64,000 nucleotides of DNA from Bacteroidota bacterium. GTDB taxonomy: Bacteria > Bacteroidota > Bacteroidia > Bacteroidales > CG2-30-32-10. Both the position numbers and the translations under genes were made by a program. The stretch's first letter is position 1. Every line of letters begins with the position of its first letter. The stretch covers positions 2,521-66,520 of the forward strand of contig JACAAW010000004.1 in NCBI GenBank assembly GCA_013377115.1, given 5' to 3'. The notes below the pieces were generated by a model that was not told the DNA's origin, searched no databases, and worked only from the letters and a program-made list of their open reading frames with translations. This document shows, in pieces, positions 336-20,779 of this stretch.

Positions 336-2630
336 ATGCGAAAAAACGCTACTAATGTTATTACATTATTGACATTTATCAGTACATTTTTTATAGCTTG
401 TTTAATTTACGCAGAAAAAAATGGATTTAATTTTTGGAAAAAATCAGTAAAAAACCAAACAGAGTTAAACGCGCTACCGCATGGCACTTGCAATTCCTGC
501 CATATTAATCACACTGCTCCAGGAGGAGAACTAACCTCTGTTAATGGAAATGCTAATCTCTGTATTAGTTGTCATAACGCAGCCGGATCTGCAAGTACTT
601 TACCTTTTGCAAATGTTGATAAAGCAATTCCTGGAATTAGCGGCAATTCTCATAGTTGGGATAAAATTGGAGTAAACGCAATTTTCGAAACAAATACCCC
701 ATCTAATTCTGATATGTCTTCAAGAATGCCTGGCGGAAACATTATTTGTTCAACCTGCCATAACCAGCATTTACAAGACTTCCCTCCTTTCCTTCGTGCT
801 TCAAATTCAGGAGATGCGTTATGCAAAGAATGTCACTCCGCCAGAGATGTTGGAAATTATTTAACCAACACAACATCAAATAAAGGAAGTCATCCAGTTG
901 GCATCACCTATAACAATACTGATTCTAGATTTTTAATTTCACCTTTATCGCCAATGACATTGGTTAACTCAAAAATCGAATGTTCAAGTTGCCATAGTGT
1001 TCATTATGCAGCAACTAATGACGGAAATTTATTAAGAGCAACCAACAACGATGCCTTATGTGCTAATTGTCATACTTATGGAATGCATCATGGAATGTCG
1101 TGTTCTGCTTGTCATCAGACACACAATCCAAATAAAACAAATATTTTCATGGTTAAAGATAGTATACAGACACCATCAAGTGGAAAAGTTGCTGTTATTT
1201 TATCTTCTGAAACCGGTTCAAATTCTTATGCTGATGGAGATGCAAACTACAATGGAATATGCGAAGCTTGTCATACAACCACCGCTTATCATAGAAATGG
1301 AAGTTCTGGGAATCACTCACACAATACTGGAGCGAATTGCATTGGTTGTCATCCGCATAAAGATGCTTTTAGCGCTGGTGATTGTATTACTTGCCACGCA
1401 TTAGCTCAAGATAATGGAGATGGGATTCCAGTTGGAGGAAGAAGAGCAATAATTGGAGAATTTCCTGCCAGTAATGCCCACGCTCATTATGGTGCAGCGA
1501 TAAACGCGCAATCTTGCCAAGTTTGTCATGATATGTCTACCCACAAAAGTGGAATTGTCAAACTAATTGATGCAGATAATAGTTCAATCTATCAGTTTGT
1601 AAAACCTGAAAATTTAACTACTGATCCTGATGTTTCAAATTTCTGTATGAGTTGTCATGATGCAAATGGAGCAACGAGGTTAGCGACACCTTTAGATCCA
1701 TTTGGTAATGGAAATATTGCTCCAGATGTGAAATTAAAATTTCAAGGAACTTTACAATGGAATGAATGGTACGGCGATTTCTGTTTTGGAGATGAAGGCA
1801 CATTAAGAGCGGTAAATAGTCATCATGACATAAGCAATGCAGATCAAACATTTAGTGGTGCAAAAATTGAATGTTTAAATTGTCATGGTGCTCATATTTC
1901 ATCAGCAACATCAAAAATTGCAAATCCAAATAGCACCAATTCTGTTTGGGCTGGCACTTATAATGATTTCTGCTTAACATGTCACAGTGGAGGAACGGGA
2001 CCAACCACCCCTGGATTTCCTACTGGTGTAACAGGTCCAACGATTGCATTAAGAGGTTTAGAATCTTGTGGATATACTGCAGCACCTTGGTATGTTGACT
2101 ATATTTGGTCAAATAGTGCACATGGGTTAAATTCAAAACGACCTTGGACTGGATATTCTGGTGCGCCATCTTATAATATGTCATGCAAAGATTGCCACGA
2201 CCCTCATGGTTCTTACACTCCAACAAATACTGCTGGAAACCCATATATGATAAAAGATTATGTTGATGGCAGTTTGTTCGTGGATGACGGCGATCGTAAT
2301 ACTGGGCCATGGACAGGTCCGCCATGGACCACCTTTGGATTAAGCAGAGCTGTAAAAATCACTATTTCAGGAACAGATGTTAATTGGGGATCTCCGACAG
2401 GATTATGCAGTGTTTGTCATCCAAATTGGGAAAATGCATATGACTGGCACTCCTATTGTGGTGCATGTCAAACTTGCCATGGACATGGCCAAGCTTTTGG
2501 TGAAAATGACTGGGGTGGTGGTGGAAATTCCATACCTTGCGGTGGAAAAAGCACCCAATTAAAAATAATTGAATTAAGTAAGGAAAAAAGCAAAGTCAAA
2601 TTACATTCAAAATCTCTAGAAAAGAAATAA
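336..2630 (+). CDS. Large multiheme cytochrome c, 17 CxxCH motifs
   Basis: 17 CxxCH counted, many as CxxCHxxH...LCxxCH pairs; N-terminal signal/TM segment; Lys-rich C-terminal tail. Confidence 0.93.
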   Translation: MRKNATNVITLLTFISTFFIACLIYAEKNGFNFWKKSVKNQTELNALPHGTCNSCHINHTAPGGELTSVNGNANLCISCHNAAGSASTLPFANVDKAIPGISGNSHSWDKIGVNAIFETNTPSNSDMSSRMPGGNIICSTCHNQHLQDFPPFLRASNSGDALCKECHSARDVGNYLTNTTSNKGSHPVGITYNNTDSRFLISPLSPMTLVNSKIECSSCHSVHYAATNDGNLLRATNNDALCANCHTYGMHHGMSCSACHQTHNPNKTNIFMVKDSIQTPSSGKVAVILSSETGSNSYADGDANYNGICEACHTTTAYHRNGSSGNHSHNTGANCIGCHPHKDAFSAGDCITCHALAQDNGDGIPVGGRRAIIGEFPASNAHAHYGAAINAQSCQVCHDMSTHKSGIVKLIDADNSSIYQFVKPENLTTDPDVSNFCMSCHDANGATRLATPLDPFGNGNIAPDVKLKFQGTLQWNEWYGDFCFGDEGTLRAVNSHHDISNADQTFSGAKIECLNCHGAHISSATSKIANPNSTNSVWAGTYNDFCLTCHSGGTGPTTPGFPTGVTGPTIALRGLESCGYTAAPWYVDYIWSNSAHGLNSKRPWTGYSGAPSYNMSCKDCHDPHGSYTPTNTAGNPYMIKDYVDGSLFVDDGDRNTGPWTGPPWTTFGLSRAVKITISGTDVNWGSPTGLCSVCHPNWENAYDWHSYCGACQTCHGHGQAFGENDWGGGGNSIPCGGKSTQLKIIELSKEKSKVKLHSKSLEKK

Positions 2631-2688
2631 TTTTTATTTTTCCTAGCAATCTAATAGCACAATTTGGAAATTTTATTCTAAAATATAA

Positions 2689-2696
2689 TAATTTTG
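2689..2696 (+). promoter_or_regulatory. Candidate Bacteroidota -7 promoter box
   Basis: TAATTTTG matches TAnnTTTG; TTTG at 2663-2666 upstream. Confidence 0.4.
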
Positions 2697-2814
2697 GTGA
2701 AAAATTATTGTATTTTAGAATATTGTTATTATTTTTACAGGCTAAATTGAGCAAATATTTTAATTCAACATTAGAATTTGTTAAATAATTAACACCCTAT
2801 TGGGATACTATATA

Positions 2815-3867
2815 ATGAAATCGCTTTTCTCACGTAATATATATGCAATAAATTTGATAGTAATTGCTATTATGCAATTACAAAATATTGCTTATGCTCA
2901 AAATGATTTAGGCAAAGACAATTTTCAAAATGGTGATATTAATTATGTCAAATATATTAACCAATTCCCATCTATAGATAAAGGAAAATCTTCAAATTTT
3001 TTCGAAAAAGTTACTGATTTTATAATTGGAGAAAAAGAAACTCCATTATTAATCAAGCCTATGTCAGTAATTGCAATAAACCCTGATTCTTTTCAAATAT
3101 TAGATCAAGGAAATGGATTGGTATTTCAAATACAAAATCAAGAAAGTGAAATTCCAAAGTTTTTTAAAAAACGAAAAGACAAATTAACTTCATTGGTTGG
3201 TATTTGCGAGAACTCAACAAAAGATGTGTTAATAACCGATTCTAAACTCAATAAAATTTTCAAAATTAGTGCTGATAAAAAATCGATTACTATTCTTAAT
3301 GATTCATTAAAACTAAATCAACCTACAGGAATTTCTTTTTCAAATACAACAAAGGAAATTTGGGTAGTTGAAACTGGGGCACACCAGATTTCAATTTTAG
3401 ATGAAAATGGTAACTTGAAGAAAACTATTGGTAAACGAGGAACCCAAAATAGTGAATTTAATTTTCCAACTTATTTAAGTTTTGACAAAAAAGGAAATGC
3501 CTATGTTGTTGATGCCATGAATTTTAGAATTCAAATTTTTGACAAATCGGGTAATTTTGTTTCCACATTTGGAGAAATCGGTGATGCTACTGGCTATTTT
3601 TCAAGACCAAAAGGAATTGCAATCGATTCGACTGGAAACATCTACATTGTTGATGCTCTGTTTAATACAGTGCAAATTTTTGACAATACTGGAGCCTTTT
3701 TATATCAATTTGGCAAACAAGGTCAGAATAAAGAAGAATTTTGGATGCCAACAGGCATTTTTATTGATAAAAAAGATTATATATATGTGGCAGATAGTTA
3801 TAATGCCAGAGTTCAAATATTTCAACATGTTTATGAAAAAGGAAATGAAAAAAGCATTAAAAATTAG
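2815..3867 (+). CDS. NHL-repeat beta-propeller protein (secreted)
   Basis: Repeated F..P.GI..D..GN.YVVD...RIQIFD units; signal peptide from ATG 2815 (track start is TTG 2800). Confidence 0.9.
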   Translation: MKSLFSRNIYAINLIVIAIMQLQNIAYAQNDLGKDNFQNGDINYVKYINQFPSIDKGKSSNFFEKVTDFIIGEKETPLLIKPMSVIAINPDSFQILDQGNGLVFQIQNQESEIPKFFKKRKDKLTSLVGICENSTKDVLITDSKLNKIFKISADKKSITILNDSLKLNQPTGISFSNTTKEIWVVETGAHQISILDENGNLKKTIGKRGTQNSEFNFPTYLSFDKKGNAYVVDAMNFRIQIFDKSGNFVSTFGEIGDATGYFSRPKGIAIDSTGNIYIVDALFNTVQIFDNTGAFLYQFGKQGQNKEEFWMPTGIFIDKKDYIYVADSYNARVQIFQHVYEKGNEKSIKN

Positions 3868-5545
3868 TATTGGTATTTTATTGGTAAGTGTATCATTTTT
3901 CAGTAATTCACAATCAATAGTTACAACAAAGCACAATTTATCAGTTTCAGGGACTGGTAGCGTTAAAGCTGTAACAGAATCTGAAATTTGCAAGTTTTGT
4001 CATACACCTCATATGGGTAGTCCGGCAGCACCATTATGGAATAGAACAATATCTGGAGCATCTTATACTTTATACAACAGTTCCACGATGAATGCTATTC
4101 CTGGTCAGCCTGACGGATCTTCAATATTATGTTTGTCATGCCATGATGGAACTATTGCTTTGGGAAGCATTATGAGTTCAGTTACTCCGATTGCAATGAC
4201 TGGTACAATGCAAAGAGGAAATCTGACAACAGATTTATCAAATGACCATCCGATTTCCTTTGTTTATAATGCATCTTTGGCTAGTACTGACGGACAATTA
4301 AAAACTCCTCCATTATCAACAATTCCACTTGACAATAATTCAAGAGTTCAGTGCACATCTTGCCACGATTCACACAAAAATTTATACACAAAGTTTTTAA
4401 GAGCTAGTAATGAATCTTCAGCTTTTTGTTTTTTATGTCATGATAGAACATATTGGGCTTCATCGACTCACAGCTCCTCAACAAGTACATGGAACGGAAC
4501 TGGAACAAATCCTTGGGGACACATGGAATTTCCATATTCAAACGTTTCAAAAAATGCTTGTGAAAATTGCCATGCACCTCACAATGCACAAGGAAAAAAT
4601 CGATTGTTAAAATCCATTACAGAAGAAGGCAATTGTTTGGATTGTCACAATGGCAATGTAGCAGCTTCAACCAAAAACTTGGTGAATCAATTTGCAAAAA
4701 CCTACAAGCATAATGTTGCAGGTTATATTAATATTCACGATCCAAATGAATCAAATTCAGTAACAACCCAACATGTTGAATGTGTTGATTGCCACAACGC
4801 ACATGCCTCAAATGCCACTACGGCGTCAGCTCCAAATATTAATGGATCAATGATTGGTGTTAAAGGAATTAATCAATCAGGAGTTGCCATTACATCAGCA
4901 AACTATGAATATGAAATTTGTTATAAATGCCATGCAGGAAACACCTGGTCTCCAGCATCAGCGACTTCAAGAGTTATTTCTCAAAACAATGTACGTCTTG
5001 AATTCGCAACAACGAATCCTTCTGGACACCCAGTTGCAGGTGCAAGAAACATCAGTGAAATAACGACCAATTTAATATCTCCAAATACTGCATCTACTGT
5101 GATTTACTGTACAGCATGTCATGCAAGCGATGGAGCTAGCTCTCCAGCAGGCCCTCATGGATCAATCTACCCTCAAATATTAAAATTACAATACTTGAAA
5201 AATGATGGTGCATCCTCAGCAAATGGGACAACAGAGTCGGCATCAGCGTATGCCCTTTGTTACAGCTGTCATAATAGAGCCAATATTATTAATAATGTTA
5301 GCACCTTCCCTGAACATAAATTACATATTGTAGATCAAAGAACTCCCTGCAATACTTGTCATGATCCTCATGGGATTAGCAGTACTCAGGGAACCTCTGC
5401 TAACAATTCAAACCTTATCAACTTCAGATCAGGTGTTGTAACGCCTGCAGGAACCTTATTAAGGTTTGTGGATACTGGAGTTAGACATGGTTATTGTCAA
5501 TTGGTTTGTCATGGTCAAACTCATGCTGCAAGTATGTTCTATTAA
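3845..5545 (+). CDS. Multiheme cytochrome c (11 CxxCH + 1 CX3CH) with N-terminal OmcE-like tetraheme domain
   Basis: Start reassigned to ATG 3845 (MKKALKISIGILLV, signal peptide); 11 CxxCH plus terminal CQLVCH; first ~200 aa colinear with 5904-6536. Confidence 0.92.
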   Translation: MKKALKISIGILLVSVSFFSNSQSIVTTKHNLSVSGTGSVKAVTESEICKFCHTPHMGSPAAPLWNRTISGASYTLYNSSTMNAIPGQPDGSSILCLSCHDGTIALGSIMSSVTPIAMTGTMQRGNLTTDLSNDHPISFVYNASLASTDGQLKTPPLSTIPLDNNSRVQCTSCHDSHKNLYTKFLRASNESSAFCFLCHDRTYWASSTHSSSTSTWNGTGTNPWGHMEFPYSNVSKNACENCHAPHNAQGKNRLLKSITEEGNCLDCHNGNVAASTKNLVNQFAKTYKHNVAGYINIHDPNESNSVTTQHVECVDCHNAHASNATTASAPNINGSMIGVKGINQSGVAITSANYEYEICYKCHAGNTWSPASATSRVISQNNVRLEFATTNPSGHPVAGARNISEITTNLISPNTASTVIYCTACHASDGASSPAGPHGSIYPQILKLQYLKNDGASSANGTTESASAYALCYSCHNRANIINNVSTFPEHKLHIVDQRTPCNTCHDPHGISSTQGTSANNSNLINFRSGVVTPAGTLLRFVDTGVRHGYCQLVCHGQTHAASMFY

Positions 5546-5751
5546 TAAAAATTTCATCAAGTAATTAGCGCAAAATCAATTATGATAGCTAGTAAAAATC
5601 TATGCAAATTTTTGTTTTTTGCCAAAAAATACTAAAAAAATAATAAAGCTATAAAAAAACATATTTTCAAAATATCAGATTATAAATTTAAAAATCTAAT
5701 ATTCAACAATTTACACATTCTATTTATACATATTATAAATACGCATATTTG

Positions 5752-5782
5752 TTTGTTTTTTTAGAAAAGTGTTTTATTTTTG
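5752..5782 (+). promoter_or_regulatory. Bacteroidota housekeeping promoter for the OmcE-like gene
   Basis: TTTG (5752-5755), 19-nt spacer, TATTTTTG (5775-5782) fits the -33/-7 consensus. Confidence 0.6.
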
Positions 5783-5903
5783 GACTTTAATTATATAGGA
5801 TAAATTGCAAATAAGAAATACTATCAATAAATGTTAAAATTTTAACAATCTAAATAAAAACAATTAATTAAATAATTATTATCAACCAAAAAAAAGAAAC
5901 AAA

Positions 5904-6536
5904 ATGAAACTAAAAAATTTATTTTTTGCAGTAACGCTTGTATTAGCTTTTACTCAAATGAGCTTTGCTCAAACTATTGTGGGTTCTGCTCATGATTTTT
6001 CTTCTCAAGCTTGGAATACTACTGGAGAAATTTGTATCGTATGTCATACTCCTCATGGTGCCATCACAACTGTTAGTAATGCTCCTTTATGGAATCACCA
6101 AGTAACTGCAACAGCTGCATTTACTCTTTATTCAGGATCAACCTTTAATGGTGCATCCACAATTACTCAACCAGATGCTAGCTCAAAATTATGTTTAAGC
6201 TGTCATGATGGTACTGTTGCTCTTCAAAACTTCAGCGGTACAACAGGTGCTGGTACTACAATTAGTTCTTTCTATAATGTTGGAACTAACTTAGCAAACG
6301 ATCACCCAATTTCTTTTGATTACAATGCAGCTTTAGTAGCAGCTGACGGTGGTGGATTAAAAGATCCAACAACTGCTTTAGGTATTGGAACTCAAACTAT
6401 TCAAAACTCTATGTTATTTTCTAACAAAATGCAATGTGCTTCTTGTCACGATGTTCACAACAGTGCAGGTATTGCTTTCTTATTATTAAAATCTAATGCT
6501 GCAAGTGCACTTTGTTTAACTTGCCATAATAAATAA
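5904..6536 (+). CDS. Tetraheme cytochrome c, OmcE-like (candidate nanowire subunit)
   Basis: Signal peptide; 4 CxxCH; motifs AHDFS, ICIVCHTPH, PLWN, FTLY, CLSCHDG, LANDHP, CASCHDVH, LCLTCHNK follow Geobacter OmcE in order and spacing as I recall it. Confidence 0.85.
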   Translation: MKLKNLFFAVTLVLAFTQMSFAQTIVGSAHDFSSQAWNTTGEICIVCHTPHGAITTVSNAPLWNHQVTATAAFTLYSGSTFNGASTITQPDASSKLCLSCHDGTVALQNFSGTTGAGTTISSFYNVGTNLANDHPISFDYNAALVAADGGGLKDPTTALGIGTQTIQNSMLFSNKMQCASCHDVHNSAGIAFLLLKSNAASALCLTCHNK

Positions 6537-6563
6537 TCAAATATTTTTTTATATTTGTATGCT

Positions 6564-6594
6564 AAAAAAAGGGCGAGAATTTTTCGCCCTTTTT
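6564..6594 (+). terminator. Terminator/stabilising hairpin after the OmcE-like gene
   Basis: AAAAAGGGCGA-gaatttt-TCGCCCTTTTT. Confidence 0.75.
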
Positions 6595-6616
6595 AAATAA
6601 ATTTTGAAAAAATAAA

Positions 6617-7690
6617 ATGATGAATAAACTATATTATAATTTTCTTTTTATCGGAATTGCTTTAATTCTAACTTTCTCATCTTGTAATAAAAACGGTGTT
6701 CCGAAAAAAACAACAGATATTGTTATTTATCCTACCCCACCTGATACAGCTAGAATCCAATACCTAACTAGTATCAGTGATTCAAAAAATATTACTGGAA
6801 GACGAAATGCTTTTCTTAGATTTGTTTTAGGCGATTTTCAACCATATCCGTTGGTAAAACCATACGGAATTGCTGTTAAGAAAGGTAAAATATACATTTG
6901 TGATACTGGGTCCAATGGAATTACCATTATTGATTTAGCTAAAAAATCTTTAATCCCATTTTTCCCAAAAGGGAAAGGTCAATTAAAAGCCCCAATAAAT
7001 TGTTTCGTTGATGACAACGAGTATTTGTACGTTGCTGATGGCGAAAGACGTCAGGTTGTTGTTTTTGACAAAAAAGGTGAATATGTAAACGCATTTGGAG
7101 AAACAGAAAATTTTAAACCTACAGATGTTTTTGTAGTTAATGATAAAGTTTATGTTGTTAATTCCAAAAATAACAGAATAAATATTTATAAAAAAGGAAC
7201 TTTTGAATTACTATCTTTTTTCCCTGAGTCTGGACAAGGTAGTGAGGATTTTTTATATACTCCAGTTAATATTTATGTGAGCCCTGATAAAGTTTACGTA
7301 AGTGACATGGGAGACTTTAAAATAAAGAAATATACTCTTGAAGGAAAATATATTAACTCTGTTGGGAGTTATGGAAAAAATTTAGGCCAATTTGTTCGTC
7401 CAAAAGGAATTGCAGTTGATAAAGAAGAAAATCTTTTTGTTGTTGATGCAGGTTTTGAAAATACACAAATATTTGATAAACAAGATCGTTTATTAATGTA
7501 TTTTGGAGGTCCTTACAAAGCTCCTGGAGATATGTGGCTGCCAGCCAAAATTACACTTGACTATGAGAATCTTCAATATTTTCAAAAATATGTAGATCCA
7601 AGTTTTGAGCTAAAATATTTAATTTTCGTAACAAATCAATATGGTCCGGATAAAATTAGTGTATACGGAGCTGTTGGTCCAAAAAAATAA
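6617..7690 (+). CDS. NHL-repeat beta-propeller lipoprotein
   Basis: Lipobox LTFSS-C; NHL repeats (PYGIAV, PKGIAVDKEENLFVVD). Confidence 0.9.
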   Translation: MMNKLYYNFLFIGIALILTFSSCNKNGVPKKTTDIVIYPTPPDTARIQYLTSISDSKNITGRRNAFLRFVLGDFQPYPLVKPYGIAVKKGKIYICDTGSNGITIIDLAKKSLIPFFPKGKGQLKAPINCFVDDNEYLYVADGERRQVVVFDKKGEYVNAFGETENFKPTDVFVVNDKVYVVNSKNNRINIYKKGTFELLSFFPESGQGSEDFLYTPVNIYVSPDKVYVSDMGDFKIKKYTLEGKYINSVGSYGKNLGQFVRPKGIAVDKEENLFVVDAGFENTQIFDKQDRLLMYFGGPYKAPGDMWLPAKITLDYENLQYFQKYVDPSFELKYLIFVTNQYGPDKISVYGAVGPKK

Positions 7691-7700
7691 TTCATTTTAA

Positions 7701-8273
7701 ATGTTCAATAAAGTAAGATATCTCGTCTCCCTAATAACGATAGTAATGATTACTCTTATTATTGGGTGTTCTCCAAAAAGTAATTATAAATTACTTTCAA
7801 CAATGTTTGATGGGGTTCCGGATCCAAATAAAGTTGAATCTACCACCGGAGTAAAATCATCGGATAGTTTAAACGGCCAAAGTTTATCAAAAAAGAACAC
7901 TTCTGTGTCAAAAGTTATTCATCCACCTTATAAAGATAAAGGCTGTTCTAACTGTCATGAAAAAATAGATAATGTACCTTCCAGTAAATTAATAAAACCA
8001 CAATTAGAATTATGTTATTCTTGTCACGAAGATTTTTCTAAAAAGTTCACTTGGGTTCATGGGCCTGTTGCGGCTGGAAGTTGTACAAAATGTCATAGCC
8101 CACATGCTTCTGATTTCAAAAAATTACTATTAAAAGAAGGTCAGGCTTTATGCTTTACTTGTCATGATTCTAAAGATGTAATTAAAAATGAAGTTCACAA
8201 AGAAATTGGACAAACAAATTGTACAGAATGTCATAATCCTCATGGCGGAAGTGATAAAACTATTTTAAGATAA
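7701..8273 (+). CDS. Pentaheme cytochrome c lipoprotein (doubled-CXXCH type)
   Basis: Lipobox LIIG-C; FDGVP motif; 5 CxxCH (CSNCH, CYSCH, CTKCH, CFTCH, CTECH). Confidence 0.9.
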   Translation: MFNKVRYLVSLITIVMITLIIGCSPKSNYKLLSTMFDGVPDPNKVESTTGVKSSDSLNGQSLSKKNTSVSKVIHPPYKDKGCSNCHEKIDNVPSSKLIKPQLELCYSCHEDFSKKFTWVHGPVAAGSCTKCHSPHASDFKKLLLKEGQALCFTCHDSKDVIKNEVHKEIGQTNCTECHNPHGGSDKTILR

Positions 8274-8277
8274 CATT

Positions 8278-10245
8278 ATGAAGTATTATTTAAAAATATT
8301 TGTCGTAATTTATTTCATTCTTTTTGCCTCAATAGAATGTTTTTCGCAATATTCGACAGAAACTGTTCCATTCTTCAAACTTACATCATTAAATGGTGAA
8401 ATAAAGTTGAAAGGTCTTTATCGAGATCAAACTACTTATACCTATGGTTTAAAAAACACCCAAAAAAGCTCATTTTTATACGGAGGAATTATGGTGAAAA
8501 CACAAAGTTATTTGTGGACACCGAATTTCTTAGCTCTTGAAATCGACGGTGAATTCAATCCAGAAAAAAGGGAGGAAAAATATCTGATTATTCCAAATCA
8601 AGCTGAAGTAAATACCATGAGAAATATCCATATCAAAGGGACTTTCTTTCAGCAAAAGAAACTCAATTTAGGCTCTTATTTCAATTATGATGAAAACTAT
8701 AGCAGTAGAGAAAATTTGTCTAACTTGAGAACAAAAGGAAAAAGTTATGGAGCATTTTTAAATTATAGCAACAAATTTTTACCTTTTACGCTTAACTATA
8801 ATCAAAGTAATTTTATTCAGAAAGAAATTCAAACTGATAGAAATTTTATTTCAAATTCAACAGAAGTTGTTGGAAAATTCACCAAGTCCTTTTCAGGTAA
8901 AGATCGCCATGAACTTACAATTTCTCATAATGAATTTGATAGAAAAGACGCGGATTTCCTAAATATTAATAACAAAACAAATAGCGCTTATTTATCTGAT
9001 AATGTTTTCTTCGATAAGAAACAAAATTATTATTTTAATTCATTTATTTCTGCAATAGATCAAACTGGTTTTGATACTTACAGAAGGTACCAAGCAAATG
9101 AAAATTTCAATTTTAAACTTCCAAGAAAATTTAGTGTAATTGCTAATTACAGCTTTAACAGAAATGAAAGATTATTGCAAACTTTAAATCAACATAATGC
9201 AAATCTAACATTTGGAAAGAAATTTTACGAAAGTTTATATACTGGTGTTTTTTATGAATATAACAATGCTTCTCATACTTCCTATAAAGAGGAAATTCAT
9301 AAAGCCGGCATCGATTTAAATTACACTAAAAAACTTCCTACTAAAGGTTTATTAACTTTATCATATAGATATTACAGACAATTCCAAAACCACACAAGCG
9401 GAGATATTTTCTTAAATGTTATTAGAGAAGAATATACTTTAGCAGACGGACAATTTGTTTTATTAACAAAACCTTATGTTACACCAGGAACTGTTGTAGT
9501 TACTGATATTACAGGAACGATTATCTATCAGGAAAATTTAGATTATATTTTAATTAATCAAACAAATAATTTCACTGAAATTAAACGTATTCCTGGTGGT
9601 CTAATCCCAAACAATTCTATTGTTTACGTTGATTATATTGCAAAACAACCAGGAGCATATAACTTTGATGCTAGTAATCAAAACTTTGGTGCAAGCTTGA
9701 TGCTATTTAATAGACTCGTTGAAGTTTATTATAGATATTCAAGTCAGGATTACTTAACGATAAACCAAACCGAATATCTAACCTTAAATTATTTTCATCA
9801 AAATGTAGTTGGATTAAGAGCAGAGTACAAATTCGCGAGCGCAGGTGCCGAATATGATTATTACAATAGCAGTATTATCCCTTATAAATCAATGAGATAT
9901 TTTGCAGGACTTCAAGGCAATATTAAACAAAAATTTGCTTATTCATTAATCGGAAATTTACGTAACTACGAAATGATTAACGAGAATTTAACCCAAAGAT
10001 ATTCTGATGTTACAGGTTCAATAGCTTATTATATTAAAACAAAAAATAAAATCAAATTGGATGTAGGTTATATGAATCAAGTTGGGCAGGGAATAAATTT
10101 AGATTTGATAACTGCAAAAACGGAATTTACTACTTTCTACAGAAAACTATATTTTACTCTTGGGCTTGAATTTTATAAACGAACTTATCAAGGCGAAGAT
10201 TTAGATTTCAAAGGTGGATACGTTCAAATTTCAAGAAAATTTTAA
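8278..10245 (+). CDS. Predicted outer-membrane beta-barrel (porin of a porin-cytochrome conduit)
   Basis: Signal peptide; alternating aromatic/hydrophobic beta-strand pattern; C-terminal Phe (QISRKF); flanked by multiheme cytochrome genes. Confidence 0.75.
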   Translation: MKYYLKIFVVIYFILFASIECFSQYSTETVPFFKLTSLNGEIKLKGLYRDQTTYTYGLKNTQKSSFLYGGIMVKTQSYLWTPNFLALEIDGEFNPEKREEKYLIIPNQAEVNTMRNIHIKGTFFQQKKLNLGSYFNYDENYSSRENLSNLRTKGKSYGAFLNYSNKFLPFTLNYNQSNFIQKEIQTDRNFISNSTEVVGKFTKSFSGKDRHELTISHNEFDRKDADFLNINNKTNSAYLSDNVFFDKKQNYYFNSFISAIDQTGFDTYRRYQANENFNFKLPRKFSVIANYSFNRNERLLQTLNQHNANLTFGKKFYESLYTGVFYEYNNASHTSYKEEIHKAGIDLNYTKKLPTKGLLTLSYRYYRQFQNHTSGDIFLNVIREEYTLADGQFVLLTKPYVTPGTVVVTDITGTIIYQENLDYILINQTNNFTEIKRIPGGLIPNNSIVYVDYIAKQPGAYNFDASNQNFGASLMLFNRLVEVYYRYSSQDYLTINQTEYLTLNYFHQNVVGLRAEYKFASAGAEYDYYNSSIIPYKSMRYFAGLQGNIKQKFAYSLIGNLRNYEMINENLTQRYSDVTGSIAYYIKTKNKIKLDVGYMNQVGQGINLDLITAKTEFTTFYRKLYFTLGLEFYKRTYQGEDLDFKGGYVQISRKF

Positions 10246-10259
10246 TTTATTATTAACTC

Positions 10260-11129
10260 ATGATAGGATTTCAATTTAAGCTATTAATTTGGATTTTAGG
10301 ATTCAACTATTCTGTTGCAAACCAAGGTGATTTCAAAGTAGGAAAATGCTTGGATTGCCACGATGACAAGTTAAAACAAGCTGTTGTTCACCCTGTGGCT
10401 GAAGGTTGCGACAATTGCCATGTTGCAACAGGAAAAGAACATCCTGGAAGTGACAAAGGTTTTACTTTATCCCAAAAATTACCTGATTTATGCATTACTT
10501 GTCATCCTGATGCTATGGATGCCACAAAATCTCCTTTTTCGCATAAAGCACTTACTGAAAAAAAATCATGCGTTAATTGCCATTCACCTCATTCAACAAC
10601 CGAAAAAAAATTACTTCTAAAAGACGAAAAAACACTTTGTTTAAGTTGTCATAATAAATCAATTACCAGCGGCACGAAAAAGTATTCTAACATTAAACTT
10701 ATTGTAGAAAAAAGCAAATATGTTCATGCTGCAATTGAAAGTGGTTGTATTAGCTGTCATACTCCTCATGGATCAAAAACCGCTCAATTATTAAAAAATA
10801 ATTTCCCTGAAGGAAATTATGCCGATTCAAAAAAGGATAGCTATTCGATTTGTTTTAGCTGTCATGAACCAGGTTTATTAGAACTGGAAAAATCAACAGT
10901 TGCTACTAGCTTCAGAAATGGTGATAAAAACCTACACTTTATCCATTTAAAAGGACCTAAAGGCAGAAGTTGTAATTTATGCCACAATATGCATGGATCA
11001 AACAATGAGCATTTAATTGACGATTTTGTGAATTTTGGAAATTACAAATTGCCAATTAATTACAAACCTGAAAGTACAGGCGGTTCTTGTGCTCCAGGAT
11101 GTCATTCTGAGAAGAAATACGTTCGATAA
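10260..11129 (+). CDS. Periplasmic-type multiheme cytochrome c (8 CxxCH + 1 CX3CH)
   Basis: 8 CxxCH plus terminal CAPGCH; CxxCHxPH...LCxxCH pairs; N-terminal signal-like segment. Confidence 0.9.
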   Translation: MIGFQFKLLIWILGFNYSVANQGDFKVGKCLDCHDDKLKQAVVHPVAEGCDNCHVATGKEHPGSDKGFTLSQKLPDLCITCHPDAMDATKSPFSHKALTEKKSCVNCHSPHSTTEKKLLLKDEKTLCLSCHNKSITSGTKKYSNIKLIVEKSKYVHAAIESGCISCHTPHGSKTAQLLKNNFPEGNYADSKKDSYSICFSCHEPGLLELEKSTVATSFRNGDKNLHFIHLKGPKGRSCNLCHNMHGSNNEHLIDDFVNFGNYKLPINYKPESTGGSCAPGCHSEKKYVR

Positions 11130-11148
11130 ATTTCCTATACCGATAAAC

Positions 11149-11183
11149 AAAAAGAGTTTGCAAAACATGCAAACTCTTTTTTT
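11149..11183. terminator. Bidirectional terminator between convergent genes
   Basis: AAAAAGAGTTTGCA-aaaca-TGCAAACTCTTTTT. Confidence 0.85.
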
Positions 11184-11184
11184 A

Positions 11185-11646
11185 TTACCCCTTTTCTTTA
11201 AAGTTTTTCCAGTATTCATTTCCATAACTGCAAAAGACTTCCTCACCTGCCAATATCTTTCTTTTTGCCACAATACAAACTTTTCCGTTTTCATTTAATG
11301 TAATCTTCGAATTGGCTTTAAATTTTGATTTCACAATACCTAGAGCATCATTTGCAAATTTTGCAAAGCATTTTACGTTCATGGAATCCATAATTGTACC
11401 GTCAGGCAAATTAATAAAATATCCATCTTCTCCTCTACTTGCTCTGGCATATGATTCCAAATCATTTAATATCTCGCCTTTAAACAAAGTAATTATTTCA
11501 TCCTTATATATCGGAATCATTGTAAATAAACCTTTGCCAGAACCATCAATTTGCGATTCGTTCACAAATAGATAATCGCTTTCTTTTGCTTCAATTTTAT
11601 AAGTAATTGAATTCGAAAACTTTTTTAAAGAAGGCGTATTTTTCAT
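11185..11646 (-). CDS. SET-domain protein (lysine methyltransferase family)
   Basis: GSGKGLF, FAKFAND and AKRKILAGEEVFCSYG..YW correspond to the SET motifs. Confidence 0.85.
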   Translation of the reverse strand: MKNTPSLKKFSNSITYKIEAKESDYLFVNESQIDGSGKGLFTMIPIYKDEIITLFKGEILNDLESYARASRGEDGYFINLPDGTIMDSMNVKCFAKFANDALGIVKSKFKANSKITLNENGKVCIVAKRKILAGEEVFCSYGNEYWKNFKEKG

Positions 11647-11664
11647 GTTTTACTATTTTATAAT

Positions 11665-11699
11665 AAAAAAAAGGTGAAGGAAAACTCCTTCACCTTTTT
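11665..11699 (-). terminator. Intrinsic terminator after the NrfJ-like gene
   Basis: AAAAAGGTGAAGG-aaaact-CCTTCACCTTTTT. Confidence 0.85.
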
Positions 11700-11717
11700 A
11701 TAGAGGTGTAATTGAAT

Positions 11718-12425
11718 TTATTTTACAATTTTTCCTTCTTCAACAATTACTTTATAGAAATAACCGTATCCAAAATCTTTATCTAAAGCAACTTTTCCTT
11801 CAACTGTGATTACATCACCAACTTTTACTTCTAAATCAGTAGTAATAGTTAAATCAAAATCTTGACCATCTTTGGTTCCATCTTGTAAATGTATCCAATT
11901 TTTACTCATAATTGCCTGACTAAATTTTACAACTTCACCTTTAACTTTTACAGTTTTTCCGTTGTAATTTTTCTTGTTTTTGAACAATTCAGCAACAGTA
12001 ATTCCACCAGCAGCAGCTTCAACTTTAACTTCTTTTTGCTCCAATTTAGGTTTTGTTGGCTGCATTGAATTATTCATTTCATTTTGTTTTTCCTTTTTTT
12101 GGCCAGGAACAATTGGTTCATTGCTAACACTTTCCAAAAAGATAACTTTTGCAAAAGTTCTATTTAATTCTTTACTTTTGAAATCAACCATGTCCATTCC
12201 ATTTTCGTAATAATAAGTAGAACCCACTTTTGCATCCATCGAAGGAACAGCTAACCAATTCTCGATATCATCTTCTTTTACACGAAGATAAGTATACTCA
12301 GTAGTTTGAAGAACTTCTTGACAAACAACTTTATGAACTCCAGCAGCAACATCTTTTGAACTTTTATTTGACTGACAAGCTGTCATAAACATAACAACAG
12401 CAATTAGGCTAAAAATAATTCTCAT
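11718..12425 (-). CDS. NrfJ-like lipoprotein with C-terminal OB-fold domain
   Basis: Lipobox FMTA-C; YTYL...WLAVP...M.DFKSKELNRTF.K(V)IF resembles NrfJ; C-terminal KGEVVK...NWIHLQDG...GDVITVEG...DKDFGYGY. Confidence 0.65.
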   Translation of the reverse strand: MRIIFSLIAVVMFMTACQSNKSSKDVAAGVHKVVCQEVLQTTEYTYLRVKEDDIENWLAVPSMDAKVGSTYYYENGMDMVDFKSKELNRTFAKVIFLESVSNEPIVPGQKKEKQNEMNNSMQPTKPKLEQKEVKVEAAAGGITVAELFKNKKNYNGKTVKVKGEVVKFSQAIMSKNWIHLQDGTKDGQDFDLTITTDLEVKVGDVITVEGKVALDKDFGYGYFYKVIVEEGKIVK

Positions 12426-12460
12426 AATTTTATTTTTTATTAGTTTTTTAATTAAGTCTT

Positions 12461-12468
12461 CAAAATTA
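12461..12468 (-). promoter_or_regulatory. -7 promoter box of the NrfJ-like gene
   Basis: TAATTTTG on the minus strand about 35 nt upstream of the ATG. Confidence 0.5.
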
Positions 12469-12817
12469 CATATAAATATTAAAAAATAATATAAATTTCA
12501 TTTGTTTTTTTTCATTATTGTTAAATAGATAACGGCCCATCGAATATTGAATTACTTTTCTAATTTTTCTCCAAATATTTTATGATTAGAAATCCAAATC
12601 TAAATCACTGCATTTCAGCGCCTTGCTCTTGCAATTCTATTTAACACTTCATTTCTACAATTTTTTTTCTTGAAATTAATCACTTTTTTAAGTCCTATTA
12701 ATACTATTGGATTTTCATTTTAAATTTAAATATCCAGTTTTTAGCCATATTTAGAGAACTTCATATGAATATTCCATAAAAGTCAAGAAATATCAAAGAA
12801 AATTGAAAATAAAGTCT

Positions 12818-12825
12818 TAATTTTG
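12818..12825 (+). promoter_or_regulatory. -7 promoter box of the ccsBA operon
   Basis: TAATTTTG(CA) upstream of ATG 12911. Confidence 0.55.
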
Positions 12826-12910
12826 CACTCTAAAATTTAGAATATTCTTATATTTTATTGACCCTTTAATTAATTAAAAAATTCTTTAATCAAATAAATA
12901 AAATGCACTT

Positions 12911-15900
12911 ATGAAAAAAATTTGGAATTTACTCACCTCATCAGCGCTTACTCTAATATTATTATTACTTTTTGCAATAGCAATTGGCGTTGCCACTTTT
13001 ATTGAAGATAAATTTGACACAATTACTGCCCAAACTTTAATTTACAAATCAAAATGGATGGAAATCTTATTGATTTTATTGGCTGTTAATTTTATTGGCC
13101 ATATTAACAGATACAAATTACTTAGTTATAAGAAATTAACTGGATTTATTTTTCATTTCGCTTTTGTATTGCTTATTGTAGGCGCAGGAGTTACCAGATA
13201 TAATGGATTTGAAGGTACCATGCACATCAGAGAAGGACAAACTTCAAGTGTTATTTACACTTCTAATGGATTTTTGCAAATAACCGCAAATGAAAATGGT
13301 AAAGAATACAAGAAAGATTATGAATTAGATTTAAGCCCATTCCTAAACAATTCCTTTAGTACAGAATTGAAAATTGAAAATAAAGGGTCTATTGATTTTG
13401 TTTATAAAAATTATATAAAGAATGCAGTTGAAGTTATTGAGGAAAACGCAGCCGGTGGCTCAAATATTATTGAACTATCCTTTGCTGTTGAAAACAATTT
13501 GCAAAAAATTTATTTAAAAAATGGCGAAGTAAAGGAAATTGGAAATGTTGCAGTTGCATACAATAACAATACTAGAAAAGATGCCATTAATATCACTGAT
13601 GATAAAAATGGCCTAAAATATTCTGCTCCTTTTGGCACTATAATTTCAAGCATGACCGAAGCCAAAACAGATACTGTTGCCAAAGATTCAACTGCCGCTT
13701 TTGTGGAGAATTATTTATATAAATCAGAGACCTTTATTTTCTCGTTTTCAAAATTTTATAGAAATGCAATCACAAAATTAAAACCTGCTGAGGAAGGTCA
13801 AGAAGGAATTGATGCTCTTTTATTAGATGTAAGCTATAACGGCGTTTCAAAAGAAATCACCGTTTTTGGTGGAGCAGCTTACTTACCTAATTTTAAAGAA
13901 GAAACAGTAAACGGAATGAAGTTTAAAATAGCTTTTGGAAATAAAGAAATTCCATTGCCTTTTTCAATTCAATTAAACAAATTTGTACTAGAAAGATATC
14001 CTGGATCAATGAGTCCTTCTTCATTCGCAAGCGAAGTTACTTTAGTTGATTCTGAGAAAAATATTAATGAGCCAAGAAGAATTTTTATGAATAATGTTTT
14101 AGATCATCGTGGTTTTAGATTTTTTCAATCTTCTTATGATACTGACCAAAAAGGAACCATCCTTTCTGTAAATCATGATTTTTGGGGTACCTGGATTTCG
14201 TATTTCGGTTATTTCCTTTTAACAATAGGATTTATCGTTACTTTATTTAATAAAAATTCCAGATTTGCCGCCTTGAGCGAAAATATTAAGAAGATTCGTG
14301 AAAAAAGAAAAGCCAGTGCTTTGACAGTTCTTTTTATTCTAGGATTTTCAGCATTTGGATTTTCACAAAACCCAAATACTGGAGGAAGAGCGGTTTCAAA
14401 GGAACAAGCTGATAAATTTGGTCATTTAATTGTTCAGACTTTTGACGGCCGATTTGAACCAATGCATACCATGGCTTATGATGTAATGCATAAAATTTCC
14501 AGAATGGATAATTTTACAGTTCAGGGAAAAGGAGAATTAGATGCTGTTCAAGTATTTATGGATATGATCCTTGATCAGGAATTTTGGAAATCACAAAAAA
14601 TGATTTATGTGAGAGAAAAATCTGTTCAGGACATTATTGGTGCAACTGATAAATATGCAGCTTTTAATGATTTTCTAGTGGATGGCAACAAATACAAACT
14701 TGCGGAATACGCAGAAGTTGCTTTCAGAAAAAAACAATCAGAGCAAAATACTTTTGATAAAGAAATTATTCGTGTTGATGAACGCGTAAATATTTGCATG
14801 ATGGCATTTCAAGGAAGTATGTTGAAAATATTCCCAGCTCAAAATTCCGAAACAAATCAGTGGGTATCTTGGGGAGATTCTTTGGCAAACAGGCCTATTA
14901 CTGGCGTTTTATCCGTAATAAATGAAGATCTTCAACTTAAACAATTCAATTTTTCAAATATTTTACAATTGTACTTCCAGAGAATTGCAGAAGGAAATGC
15001 TGATGGCAATTATACTGAAGCCGAAAAAGTTCTAAAATCAATTGAAACTATTCAAAAAAGTAGTCCTGTTGCTAATGCTCTACCAACAAAATCGAGAATT
15101 GACTTTGAAATTTATTATAACAAAGCCAAGATTTTCGAAAACCTAAGAAATGTTTATGGAATCTTAAGTTTAATTCTGTTAATCCTTGCTTTTGTTGAAA
15201 ATTTCAAAGCAAAGAAAAGCAAAATCCTTAGCATTGTTCTTAAAGTATTTATCGGAATTTTAGGTCTTGCTTTCATTTACCATACCTATGGAATGGGCTT
15301 AAGATGGTATCTATCTGGTCATGCACCCTGGAGCAACGGTTATGAAGCCTTATTACTCGTTGCTTGGGGAGGTTTACTTGCAGGATTCTATTTTGTAAAA
15401 TATTCAAAAATAACCCTGGCTGCCACAGCAGTGTTGGCTTTCTCAATTTTAATGACTGCTGGTCATAGTAGTTACGACCCACAACTCACAAATTTACAAC
15501 CAGTTTTAAAATCATATTGGTTAATCATTCACGTTGCTGCAATAACAATTAGTTATGGATTTTTAGGATTGGGTTTCATTTTAGGATTAATAAATATGTT
15601 TTTATATATTCTTAAAACCAAAAAATCAACCGAGCGTATTGATTTACTTATCGGCGAACTCACTTACATCAATGAAATGAATTTATCTATAGGAGTTGCT
15701 TTAGCCACTTTAGGAACTTTTCTTGGTGGTGTTTGGGCCAACGAATCATGGGGAAGATATTGGGGATGGGATGCAAAAGAAACCTGGGCCTTGGTGATAG
15801 TTATCGTTTACGCAATTGTACTTCATTTTAGATTAGTACCGAAACTAAAAAGCACTTTTGTTTTCAATGCTGCTTCTATTGCCAGTTTCGGAACTGTAAT

Positions 15901-16066
15901 AATGACCTTCGTTGGAGTTAATTATTATTTATCGAAAGGAATGCATAGTTATGCCGCTGGCGATACACCAGTTTTCCCAATTTGGGCATGGATTACGATA
16001 TTTTCAGTAATACTTTTGATGGTAGTTGCCGGAATTAGAGAAAAGATGTCTCAGAAGAATAAATAG
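12911..16066 (+). CDS. ccsA: Fused system II cytochrome c synthase CcsBA (ResB-ResC/NrfI-type)
   Basis: N-terminal TM helices, large periplasmic ResB-like region, GHAPW, W..IHV, and the WWD motif WANESWGRYWGWDAKETW. Confidence 0.93.
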   Translation: MKKIWNLLTSSALTLILLLLFAIAIGVATFIEDKFDTITAQTLIYKSKWMEILLILLAVNFIGHINRYKLLSYKKLTGFIFHFAFVLLIVGAGVTRYNGFEGTMHIREGQTSSVIYTSNGFLQITANENGKEYKKDYELDLSPFLNNSFSTELKIENKGSIDFVYKNYIKNAVEVIEENAAGGSNIIELSFAVENNLQKIYLKNGEVKEIGNVAVAYNNNTRKDAINITDDKNGLKYSAPFGTIISSMTEAKTDTVAKDSTAAFVENYLYKSETFIFSFSKFYRNAITKLKPAEEGQEGIDALLLDVSYNGVSKEITVFGGAAYLPNFKEETVNGMKFKIAFGNKEIPLPFSIQLNKFVLERYPGSMSPSSFASEVTLVDSEKNINEPRRIFMNNVLDHRGFRFFQSSYDTDQKGTILSVNHDFWGTWISYFGYFLLTIGFIVTLFNKNSRFAALSENIKKIREKRKASALTVLFILGFSAFGFSQNPNTGGRAVSKEQADKFGHLIVQTFDGRFEPMHTMAYDVMHKISRMDNFTVQGKGELDAVQVFMDMILDQEFWKSQKMIYVREKSVQDIIGATDKYAAFNDFLVDGNKYKLAEYAEVAFRKKQSEQNTFDKEIIRVDERVNICMMAFQGSMLKIFPAQNSETNQWVSWGDSLANRPITGVLSVINEDLQLKQFNFSNILQLYFQRIAEGNADGNYTEAEKVLKSIETIQKSSPVANALPTKSRIDFEIYYNKAKIFENLRNVYGILSLILLILAFVENFKAKKSKILSIVLKVFIGILGLAFIYHTYGMGLRWYLSGHAPWSNGYEALLLVAWGGLLAGFYFVKYSKITLAATAVLAFSILMTAGHSSYDPQLTNLQPVLKSYWLIIHVAAITISYGFLGLGFILGLINMFLYILKTKKSTERIDLLIGELTYINEMNLSIGVALATLGTFLGGVWANESWGRYWGWDAKETWALVIVIVYAIVLHFRLVPKLKSTFVFNAASIASFGTVIMTFVGVNYYLSKGMHSYAAGDTPVFPIWAWITIFSVILLMVVAGIREKMSQKNK

Positions 16067-16098
16067 AGTAATTTTTTAACCTTTATAAATAAAAAAAC

Positions 16099-16542
16099 AT
16101 GCTACTAAACACTTTTGTTGTAAGATTCCATGTAATTTTCAGTTCTTCATTTCTATTAATTGCCTTAGGAATAACCATTTGGTCATTATACGGATGGTTG
16201 AAGAAAAAAGAATATACAAGAGGAAGTCATATTTTTGGACTCATTTTTCTTGGATTTCTATATGCAGATTTATTAATGGGAGTTGTCCTATATTTCTTTC
16301 TCAGAAAACCTGATGAAATATTAACAGCTGCACAAGCCATTAAATACTCATCATTAAGATTTTGGGCAGTTCAACATTTTTCGTTCATGGTTTTTGTTGT
16401 AGTTTTAAGCCAGATTGGTAAAATTTTTATTTCAAGAACTTCCGAATCTGACAGAAAATTTAAATACGCTTTCTTTTATTATGGAGCCGCAACATTAATT
16501 ACCATAATATCTGTGGCAATTTTTCTTTTGAGAAAACAATAA
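16099..16542 (+). CDS. Four-helix membrane protein (Bacteroidota family often loosely annotated cytochrome B)
   Basis: 4 hydrophobic helices; His near the N-terminus and LRFWAVQH motif; lies between ccsA and hemH. Confidence 0.6.
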   Translation: MLLNTFVVRFHVIFSSSFLLIALGITIWSLYGWLKKKEYTRGSHIFGLIFLGFLYADLLMGVVLYFFLRKPDEILTAAQAIKYSSLRFWAVQHFSFMVFVVVLSQIGKIFISRTSESDRKFKYAFFYYGAATLITIISVAIFLLRKQ

Positions 16543-16555
16543 AAGGAAAATCTTG

Positions 16556-17584: not shown

Positions 17585-17588
17585 GAAA

Positions 17589-18422: not shown

Positions 18423-18501
18423 ATCAAAACAGATTCTCTTAGACTACATATTTCAATTTCAATTATTTAGCCAAAAAGTTTTGATTTGGGCTAAATGTTT
18501 C

Positions 18502-18509
18502 TATATTTG
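18502..18509 (+). promoter_or_regulatory. -7 promoter box
   Basis: TATATTTG upstream of ATG 18561; TTTG 18 nt further upstream. Confidence 0.5.
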
Positions 18510-18560
18510 TAATACCAAGCTTTTAATAATAGAATACTTTTTAATTCTTAAAACCAGCCT

Positions 18561-20744: not shown

Positions 20745-20771
20745 ATCCTTGTATATTGGGAAATAATCACT

Positions 20772-20779
20772 TATATTTG
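20772..20779 (+). promoter_or_regulatory. -7 promoter box
   Basis: TATATTTG upstream of ATG 20806. Confidence 0.5.

Follow-up and report, generated by a model that had tools for sequence, protein, structure and literature searches.

The locus described here occupies the first part of a 64,000-nucleotide stretch of DNA (hereafter the window; bases 2521-66520 of the 69.7-kb contig JACAAW010000004.1, C231) from a metagenome-assembled genome (MAG) of a Bacteroidota bacterium, GCA_013377115.1 (4.02 Mb in 296 contigs, 94% complete). Eight co-oriented open reading frames (ORFs) on the plus strand, g1 to g8, encode five multihaem cytochromes, all of which match multihaem families in Pfam or NCBIfam, together with two NHL β-propellers and a predicted outer-membrane β-barrel; by script count they contain 45 CxxCH and 2 Cx3CH haem motifs. 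A sequence-only reading of the window had described these genes as an extracellular electron-transfer locus, and the coordinates and motif counts that it gave were reproduced exactly. Within the cluster, g2-g8 form a seven-gene core composed of module A (g2-g3) and module B (g4-g8). The region is probably a Bacteroidota version, in the sense of the Fibrobacterota-Chlorobiota-Bacteroidota (FCB) group, of the omcE cytochrome-nanowire cluster, comprising two conserved modules and maturation genes. The features are as follows.

336-2630, plus strand: g1, 764-residue cytochrome with 17 CxxCH motifs and a possible lipoprotein signal (FFIAC)
2800-3867, plus strand: g2, six-bladed NHL β-propeller with a signal peptide and without a lipobox; first gene of module A
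3845-5545, plus strand: g3, 566-residue, 12-haem cytochrome (11 CxxCH and 1 Cx3CH)
5546-5903, plus strand: AT-rich spacer of 358 bp ahead of g4
5904-6536, plus strand: g4, 210-residue tetrahaem OmcE homologue (4 CxxCH) with a signal peptide (SFA/Q)
6617-7690, plus strand: g5, NHL β-propeller lipoprotein (LTFSSC)
7701-8273, plus strand: g6, 190-residue pentahaem lipoprotein (LIIGC; 5 CxxCH)
8278-10245, plus strand: g7, 655-residue predicted outer-membrane β-barrel of about 30 strands
10260-11129, plus strand: g8, 289-residue, 9-haem soluble (periplasmic) cytochrome like MtrA/DmsE (8 CxxCH and 1 Cx3CH)
11718-12425, minus strand: 235-residue lipoprotein (MTAC), a recurrent neighbour of the cluster
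12911-16066, plus strand: fused CcsB-CcsA (CcsBA; ResB and cytochrome c assembly, Pfam PF05140 and PF01578), system II haem attachment
16553-17584, plus strand: ferrochelatase (hemH; Pfam PF00762, 4.8e-90), haem supply

OmcE-type subunits and partner proteins

The tetrahaem cytochrome g4 aligns over its full length with both solved OmcE subunits, those of D. soudanensis (9YUQ; 2e-28, residues 5-210) and G. sulfurreducens (7TFS; 1.7e-26, residues 8-210), which bears out its earlier description as OmcE-like. The four CxxCH motifs are kept, and the OmcE motifs KHDLS, TPH, NDHP and KVH have their counterparts at H30, H51, H134 and H185, so that all eight haem ligands are present; both sets are invariant in 15 members of the subfamily. 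In OmcE the additional histidines serve bis-His ligation, one of them towards the adjoining subunit. As in OmcE, the last haem motif lies one residue from the C-terminus. On these alignments, g4 is a candidate polymerising filament subunit.

The larger cytochrome g3 has a two-part layout, with a complete OmcE-like domain carrying four haems at the N-terminus (residues ~12-201) and a C-terminal extension of 365 residues carrying eight (7 CxxCH and CQLVCH). Residues 12-201 are 42% identical to g4 in an alignment that spans all of g4, and residues 7-206 match 7TFS with an E value of 3e-30; a profile of the g3 family reaches 9.2e-46 against OmcE. Approximately 50 orthologues from several phyla likewise have 12 haem motifs and are close to 560 residues long. 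A search with the family profile found no solved relative of the 8-haem extension.

Module A also exists in a split form. A full-length g3 orthologue (41-51% identity) is present in about 20 of 400 Desulfobacterota genomes; in other Desulfobacterota (L125-L132 and L137-L140) an NHL propeller homologous to g2, a 4-haem OmcE-like protein and an 8-haem protein are encoded by adjacent genes, in the same order as in g2-g3. The 4-haem protein of this trio (220-310 residues) is nearer to the N-terminal domain of g3 than to g4, and the 8-haem protein (360-470 residues) is homologous to the g3 extension. No g7-type barrel was found within 10 kb of the split trios. In the Geobacter-like genome G698 the trio (L125) lies 2.5 Mb from the omcE locus, so that g3 reads as an OmcE paralogue and its partner cytochrome fused into one protein. 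Judged from these gene arrangements, the FCB cassette unites the two modules. A third form, an 11-haem fusion of ~740-760 residues, is encoded at L133, L135 and L136. The split tetrahaem/8-haem pair may be the OmcP/OmcO pair of Geobacter. OmcE has been grouped with OmcP in earlier work (PMC11492766).

The AlphaFold2 model of g7, built from a 49-sequence alignment, has a mean predicted local distance difference test (pLDDT) score of 91.3 and 29 long strands by DSSP, corresponding to about 30 barrel strands, with a conserved β-rich insert of approximately 60 residues (roughly 390-446). Foldseek retrieved only generic large outer-membrane barrels (TonB-dependent receptors, FimD, ushers, LptD and MtrB), and the best TM-score, 0.37 to MtrB (6r2q_B), is about equal to those for TonB-dependent receptors, ushers and LptD. 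Neither Pfam nor NCBIfam gave a match, the MtrB_PioB family included. The porin of the sequence-only reading thus stands as a confident outer-membrane-type β-barrel, on the model and the Foldseek matches, and falls as a member of the MtrB/PioB porin family.

Both propellers match the NHL family in Pfam, g2 at 2.5e-23 (with a further match to DUF5128) and g5 at 1.5e-11. Among the related loci (the best 80 of at least 526 stretches encoding g4 relatives in species-representative genomes, all 80 of them MAGs), g2 adjoins g3 in nearly all, and g5 always follows g4. A crude lipobox test was positive for 49 of 71 orthologues of g5 and for 40 of 56 of g6, and for no orthologue of g3, g7 or g8. The signal peptides of g2, g3, g4 and g7, as read from the sequence, leave an N-terminal glutamine, and the true start of g2 is probably the ATG at 2815.

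The remaining cytochromes of module B are g6, which matches Paired_CXXCH_1 in Pfam (4e-29), and g8, whose best solved match is chain A of the Mtr complex (6r2q_A of 6R2Q; 3.7e-7), which we take to be MtrA. Against the DmsE family (TIGR03508) g8 scores 74.5 bits, the cut-off being 192.2, and it carries 9 haem motifs, not 10. An MtrA-like cytochrome, a barrel and a lipoprotein cytochrome are encoded side by side, as in MtrCAB of Shewanella (6R2Q) and OmaB-OmbB-OmcB of Geobacter. The cluster differs from these Mtr and porin-cytochrome (Pcc) systems in its barrel, which has about 30 strands where MtrB has 26, besides the family and TM-score results above, in the distance of g8 below the DmsE-family cut-off, and in g6, whose haems number 5, not 10-12.

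Relation to Geobacter-type omcE clusters and distribution of the cassette

Petersen et al. 2026 (PMC13712944) solved a second OmcE filament and described the omcE cluster of Desulfuromonadia; this kind of cluster is therefore already published, contrary to the novelty assumed in the sequence-only reading. In that account the omcE cluster adjoins resB/ccsB (section 8), nanowire-capable OmcE proteins are filtered by a nearby barrel and a propeller lipoprotein (sections 7-8), and clusters are listed for Thermodesulfobacteriota, Pseudomonadota, Aquificota, Campylobacterota and Nitrospirota. Our literature search found omcE clusters in these five phyla, among which are neither Bacteroidota nor the allied phyla found here; as the earlier reading had supposed, it also found no description of a characterised OmcE-type system in Bacteroidota. 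Both elements of the published filter are present at the locus, namely a large barrel (g7, 1.7 kb downstream of g4) and a propeller lipoprotein (g5), as is the minimal set given in the same paper, two propellers (here g2 and g5) and at least two multihaem cytochromes (here g3, g6 and g8), and as are flanking resB/ccsA. The likeness to the OmcS nanowire and its companion assembly cluster is one of concept, a polymerising cytochrome on the outer membrane with a porin-like pathway and helpers (PMC13712944); OmcS and OmcE have no sequence similarity (PMC12977616).

Geobacter-type clusters for direct comparison were searched for with the 7TFS sequence, rebuilt from alignments, in 400 genomes of the phylum of related locus L055. 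One closed 3.58-Mb genome has an OmcE 77-78% identical to 7TFS, and for two more the identity is 44-59%. The gene order at L145-L147 is purD, resB, ccsA, a 10-11-haem cytochrome, an 8-haem cytochrome, an NHL lipoprotein and OmcE, followed by a second NHL protein (L147), a 746-806-residue protein and glycosyltransferases, in agreement with the published description (PMC13712944).

The window cluster shares with these loci a tetrahaem subunit with 4 CxxCH motifs, 4 distal histidines and the same C-terminal end, an NHL lipoprotein adjoining OmcE, a second propeller, a large barrel gene, and homologous NHL proteins and CcsB/CcsA. The 9-haem g8 is homologous to the 10-11-haem cytochrome over its full length (6e-51), and g6 is weakly similar to the 8-haem protein (~1e-13 to 1e-16). 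The differences lie in the gene order, in the host phyla, which are outside the five listed in PMC13712944, in the 12-haem OmcE fusion g3 with its own propeller, and in the glycosyltransferase block, which has no adjacent counterpart in the window, the nearest such gene being a single GT2 gene ~20 kb away. The barrels differ as well: g7 has ~650 residues and the Geobacter-type barrel 746-806, and they belong to different sequence families; of the 80 loci, L045 alone gave a blastp match to Geobacter-type barrels. The two clusters are taken to be one kind of system, in which four to five parts are homologous and the barrel is of another family.

More than 7,600 relatives of g4 are present in the protein collection, the nearest 120 at 59-73% identity; the named nearest relatives are annotated as "cytochrome c3 family protein" and belong to Bacteroidota, Saprospiraceae, Bacteroidales, KSB1 and Gemmatimonadota MAGs. 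The best 80 loci come from Bacteroidota (at least 8 families), Ignavibacteriota, Calditrichota, KSB1, Gemmatimonadota and some Pseudomonadota and Desulfobacterota; carriers include Cyclobacteriaceae, Chitinophagaceae and Saprospiraceae MAGs. Dozens of MAGs from Bacteroidota, Ignavibacteriota, Calditrichota and KSB1 have g2-g8 in colinear order, and both modules are kept in nearly all of ~60 long related loci, module A lying upstream or downstream of module B depending on the locus. Across loci the haem numbers of g4 (4) and g3 (12, in nearly every full-length orthologue) are fixed, g6 has 5 or 9 and g8 has 9-21 haems, and g7 is ~650 residues long. Proteobacterial versions retain g4, g5, g7, g2 and g3 and are without g6 and g8. 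The cytochromes on either side of the barrel differ widely from lineage to lineage (L007, L015, L019, L024, L029, L038, L051, L054 and L069). An extra OmcE-like paralogue of ~220-250 residues with five haem motifs is encoded at L015, L024, L040, L049, L052, L055, L065, L069, L073 and L082, and none is encoded in the window; these paralogues match the 5-haem OmcE-like proteins which Petersen et al. 2026 (PMC13712944) suggest may form a new family of nanowires.

Cultured carriers of g7 are Lutimonas zeaxanthinifaciens, Gaetbulibacter aquiaggeris and Aestuariivivens sediminicola. The closed L. zeaxanthinifaciens chromosome (CP129964.1; GCA_030503675.1) has a colinear g2-g8, two copies of the 235-residue lipoprotein gene and CcsBA; its proteins are 35-54% identical to those of the window, and its g3 likewise has 11 + 1 motifs. 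The order of the cluster thus recurs, in the synteny comparison that the sequence-only reading had named as a check, both in MAGs of Bacteroidota and allied phyla and in a closed chromosome. The Lutimonas cluster genes are annotated only as hypothetical or generic cytochromes, and the region (CP129964.1:1432390-1454348) also contains two divergent CcsBA genes and a gene for a protein of more than 1,500 residues, which combines a glycine-rich domain with cytochrome motifs.

The g3 tree gathers all FCB sequences in a single starred clade (98*), separate from those of Pseudomonadota and Thermodesulfobacteriota. Within it the window belongs to a starred subclade of Bacteroidota, and the clustering of taxon labels is far stronger than with shuffled labels. 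On this placement, recent horizontal import into this genome is rejected. Where the sequence-only reading held that the cluster looks assimilated, the tree and the conserved loci show an old cassette across Bacteroidota and allied phyla. The promoter argument for assimilation falls away too. A TTTG-N21-TATTTTTG element is present at 5750-5782 in the spacer before g4; TAnnTTTG occurs 127 times in the window, with 113 ± 11 expected by chance, which is not significant, so that the match at 5775-5782 is compatible with a Bacteroidota promoter at the level of chance. The 358-bp AT-rich spacer itself suggests a separate promoter for the putative major subunit g4. A sigma-70 promoter scan gave results at or below chance, and a terminator scan found no convincing plus-strand terminator inside the cluster.

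Sorting domains of the type IX secretion system (T9SS; PF18962) are present in 3 ORFs of the same contig at or above the Pfam cut-off (18561-23253), and further Bacteroidota/FCB markers on the contig are CHU_C-type Ig domains, a Fib_succ_major gene and the N-terminal glutamine that the signal peptides of g2, g3, g4 and g7 leave behind. CcsBA is 54-55% identical to the copies of Bacteroidales, Flavobacteriaceae and Lentimicrobiaceae. These T9SS domains, the Fib_succ_major gene, the g3 tree, the CcsBA identity and an even read depth support the Bacteroidota host that had been proposed. In the run that covers the locus best, depth stays even at 8-11x for 20 kb; the stretches 10008-15078 and 15051-18874 are bridged by independent contigs, which tie g8 through CcsBA to the first T9SS cargo gene (18561-20744), and a run from a second study has identical pieces of the locus. 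Chimerism, raised earlier as a possible objection, has left no sign in any of these data. The source organism was found in lake-water metagenomes, and an identical g4 protein is present in three public freshwater or lake data sets.

Electron-transfer model and alternatives

The reading as an OmcE-type outer-membrane electron-transfer system of Bacteroidota holds by every in silico test made here, and from the comparisons above we infer its function, including polymerisation, topology, the roles of g3 and the propellers, and the direction of electron flow. In the proposed mechanism, the apoproteins would be exported by Sec and their haems attached by CcsBA, encoded 1.8 kb downstream. Electrons would reach the periplasm from inner-membrane quinol oxidases, whose genes lie in other parts of the genome, and would be gathered there by g8, which would thread into or dock under the g7 barrel, aided by the outer-membrane-anchored g6. 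Subunits of g4 would cross or assemble at the barrel with the aid of both propellers, and would polymerise head to tail through the OmcE-type inter-subunit haem-histidine link into an insulated extracellular haem chain. Joined to one end of the polymer via its OmcE domain, g3 would lead through its eight extra haems to the g8/g6 relay at the base or to an external partner at the tip; it could cap one filament end only, because the extra haems would occupy the place of the next subunit after haem 4.

The sequence-only reading had seen a complete periplasm-to-surface wire in the locus, which overstates its content, since candidate inner-membrane quinol modules lie on other contigs. The genome is rich in multihaem cytochromes, with 16 frames and 151 motifs. 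At C157:4229-8404 it encodes a 929-residue protein with 19 CxxCH motifs and a cytochrome b561-type membrane domain, a fusion resembling CbcL of Geobacter, a form known from metal reducers. The protein encoded beside it has 7 haems and is bounded at each end by membrane helices; a NapC/NirT protein is encoded elsewhere in the genome. The fusion and its neighbour are candidates for the inner-membrane entry to the pathway, and the fusion and the NapC/NirT protein could supply the periplasm with electrons.

Several observations weigh against a nanowire function. We know of no filament, haem stain or physiology for FCB organisms with the cluster, and none of the RNA-seq runs searched contains g4. 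The cultured carriers are flavobacteria, presumably aerobic heterotrophs, which sits uneasily with classical anaerobic metal respiration. The cluster is also rare: among 400 genomes drawn evenly from the phylum 2 have g7, and it is present in 6 of 200 of the order and in neither of 2 sampled genomes of the same family. The AlphaFold2 model of g3 has a mean pLDDT of 68.5, with the OmcE-like domain below 60, and Foldseek gave no match; for these reasons the extension carries no structural assignment. Comparison of g7 with the Geobacter-type barrel by hhalign gave a probability of 0.5% (the Geobacter profile has only 3 sequences, and very distant homology is possible), and a non-homologous barrel could serve a different purpose. 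OmcE-like tetrahaem proteins occur widely, and polymerisation need not be a property of every one (PMC13712944, section 7).

A two-subunit wire in Bacteroidota, Ignavibacteriota, Calditrichota and their allies is possible and is put forward tentatively: g4 would polymerise, one g3 per filament would be the end subunit, and the ~30-strand barrel of an unnamed family would be the mount. A conduit without a filament, in which g6-g7-g8 act in an Mtr/Pcc-like manner, g4 and g3 dock as surface or periplasmic monomers and transfer stays at the cell surface instead of becoming long-range, is unlikely. It would account for the MtrA/DmsE-like g8 directly beside the barrel, for the lipoprotein cytochrome g6 and for MtrB as the best structural neighbour of g7 by TM-score, and putative porin-cytochrome clusters were noted in Bacteroidetes MAGs in 2019 (PMC6344600). 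However, g7 has no MtrB_PioB family match, g4 retains all the features of a filament subunit, including the N-terminal histidine and a C-terminus just past haem 4, and the proteobacterial versions drop g6 and g8 yet keep g4, g5, g7, g2 and g3. The dispensability of g6 and g8 in Proteobacteria indicates that the core consists of the OmcE-type proteins, the propellers and the barrel, not of the MtrA-like pair. We also consider inward flow unlikely; here the same apparatus would draw on Fe(II), Mn(II), reduced humics or a partner cell as electron source and feed the respiration of oxygen or nitrate. Haem wires are reversible in principle, as among the Mtr/Pio/Mto homologues, and the lake-water origin of the organism and the range of carriers, from cultured and presumably aerobic Flavobacteriaceae to MAGs of Cyclobacteriaceae, Chitinophagaceae and Saprospiraceae, would suit this direction; the fusion of cytochrome c with cytochrome b, of the CbcL type, argues against it.

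Very unlikely is a wholly periplasmic redox or enzymatic system, with catalytic NHL propellers or a cytochrome electron store and the barrel as an unrelated substrate channel. NHL propellers do occur in enzymes, g2 and g5 have partial matches to the ScyF and SMP-30-like enzyme families, and the extracellular location of the components is a prediction; those matches are, however, far below cut-offs, the OmcE homologue, barrel and propellers are strictly co-inherited across at least 6 phyla, and the cluster is homologous to the Geobacter cluster that makes an extracellular filament (PMC13712944). It is hardly credible that assembly or binning attached a foreign cluster to a Bacteroidota contig. 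Although the MAG is fragmented into 296 contigs, the even 8-11x depth, the bridging contigs and the identical pieces in a second study argue for an intact contig, the cluster's own g3 groups within Bacteroidota, and a closed flavobacterial chromosome has the genes in the same order.

For the omcE-type reading, what is new here is the presence in phyla beyond those in the searched literature, the different barrel family and the OmcE-fusion protein within the cluster. To our knowledge, cytochrome nanowires have been experimentally shown only in Geobacter, Desulfuromonas and a few archaea. A conserved OmcE-type cassette with a vertical structure in Bacteroidota and their allies would widen the range of candidate electron exchangers with minerals, humics, electrodes or partner cells, in settings such as lakes, sediments and sludge. 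If the two-subunit wire exists, the same cassette in cultured flavobacteria with closed genomes would mean that Bacteroidota, commonly regarded as fermenters and aerobic polymer degraders, have a hidden capacity for extracellular electron exchange. Secretion, anchoring, start and end of the filament are given as unsolved by Petersen et al. 2026 (PMC13712944), whose omcE operons encode no OmcE-like protein with extra haems. The g3 protein is a concrete candidate for how filaments start, end and connect to the cell, and would, if the model is true, be a tip or base adaptor that those operons lack. As cultured, genome-closed carriers exist, the idea can be tested by ordinary microbiology and cryogenic electron microscopy.

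Flanking genes and other loci

The first gene of the cluster, g1, matches Paired_CXXCH_1, Cytochrome_C7 and the MtrC/MtrF II-IV domain in Pfam. Its orthologues are present in 2 of the 80 related loci (L029 and L069), for which reason g1 is regarded as a variable accessory cytochrome. The cluster extends beyond the upstream edge of the window, where the start of the contig (C231:1-3000) cuts into the gene of a g1 paralogue, a cytochrome of at least 640 residues with 13 haem motifs; a gene for a Fib_succ_major-domain lipoprotein follows. The last 1.9 kb of contig C221 encode a non-haem domain of ~500 residues and then a stretch patterned nearly like the N-terminus of g1; the end of C221 and the start of C231 probably join into one cytochrome gene of ~1,300 residues.

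Downstream, the 235-residue lipoprotein has homologues (37-52% identity) beside the cluster in 11 related loci, with the two Lutimonas copies in tandem, and gave no significant Pfam or NCBIfam match; it may be an accessory protein of the system that has yet to be described. In Lutimonas and at 12 related loci CcsBA is likewise encoded next to the cluster, as are resB/ccsA at L145-L147. From its position the ferrochelatase gene may belong to the system as well. A SET-domain gene on the minus strand also lies downstream of the cluster.

A second large multihaem locus of the genome, at C112:76255-78857, has two adjacent frames with 20 and 13 CxxCH motifs. An Rfam scan of the window found no RNA family. 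The three T9SS-sorted proteins at 18561-23253 are encoded by consecutive genes, and one of them is an M43 metalloprotease with a PKD domain. The ORF at 23709-25838 combines a caspase (C14) domain and TPR repeats in one protein, and 34204-37025 on the minus strand encodes the citrate lyase alpha subunit and a fused acyl-carrier/beta subunit (CitF and CitD-CitE). At 47550-63998, giant ORFs of 2,119 and more than 2,958 residues, the latter running off the window, contain Ig-like CHU_C, PKD and CUB domains and are probably adhesins; they lie in a stretch of G+C 0.40-0.42, compared with ~0.31, and the 2,119-residue ORF has a weak match to the T9SS sorting domain (22.9 bits, below the Pfam cut-off of 27).

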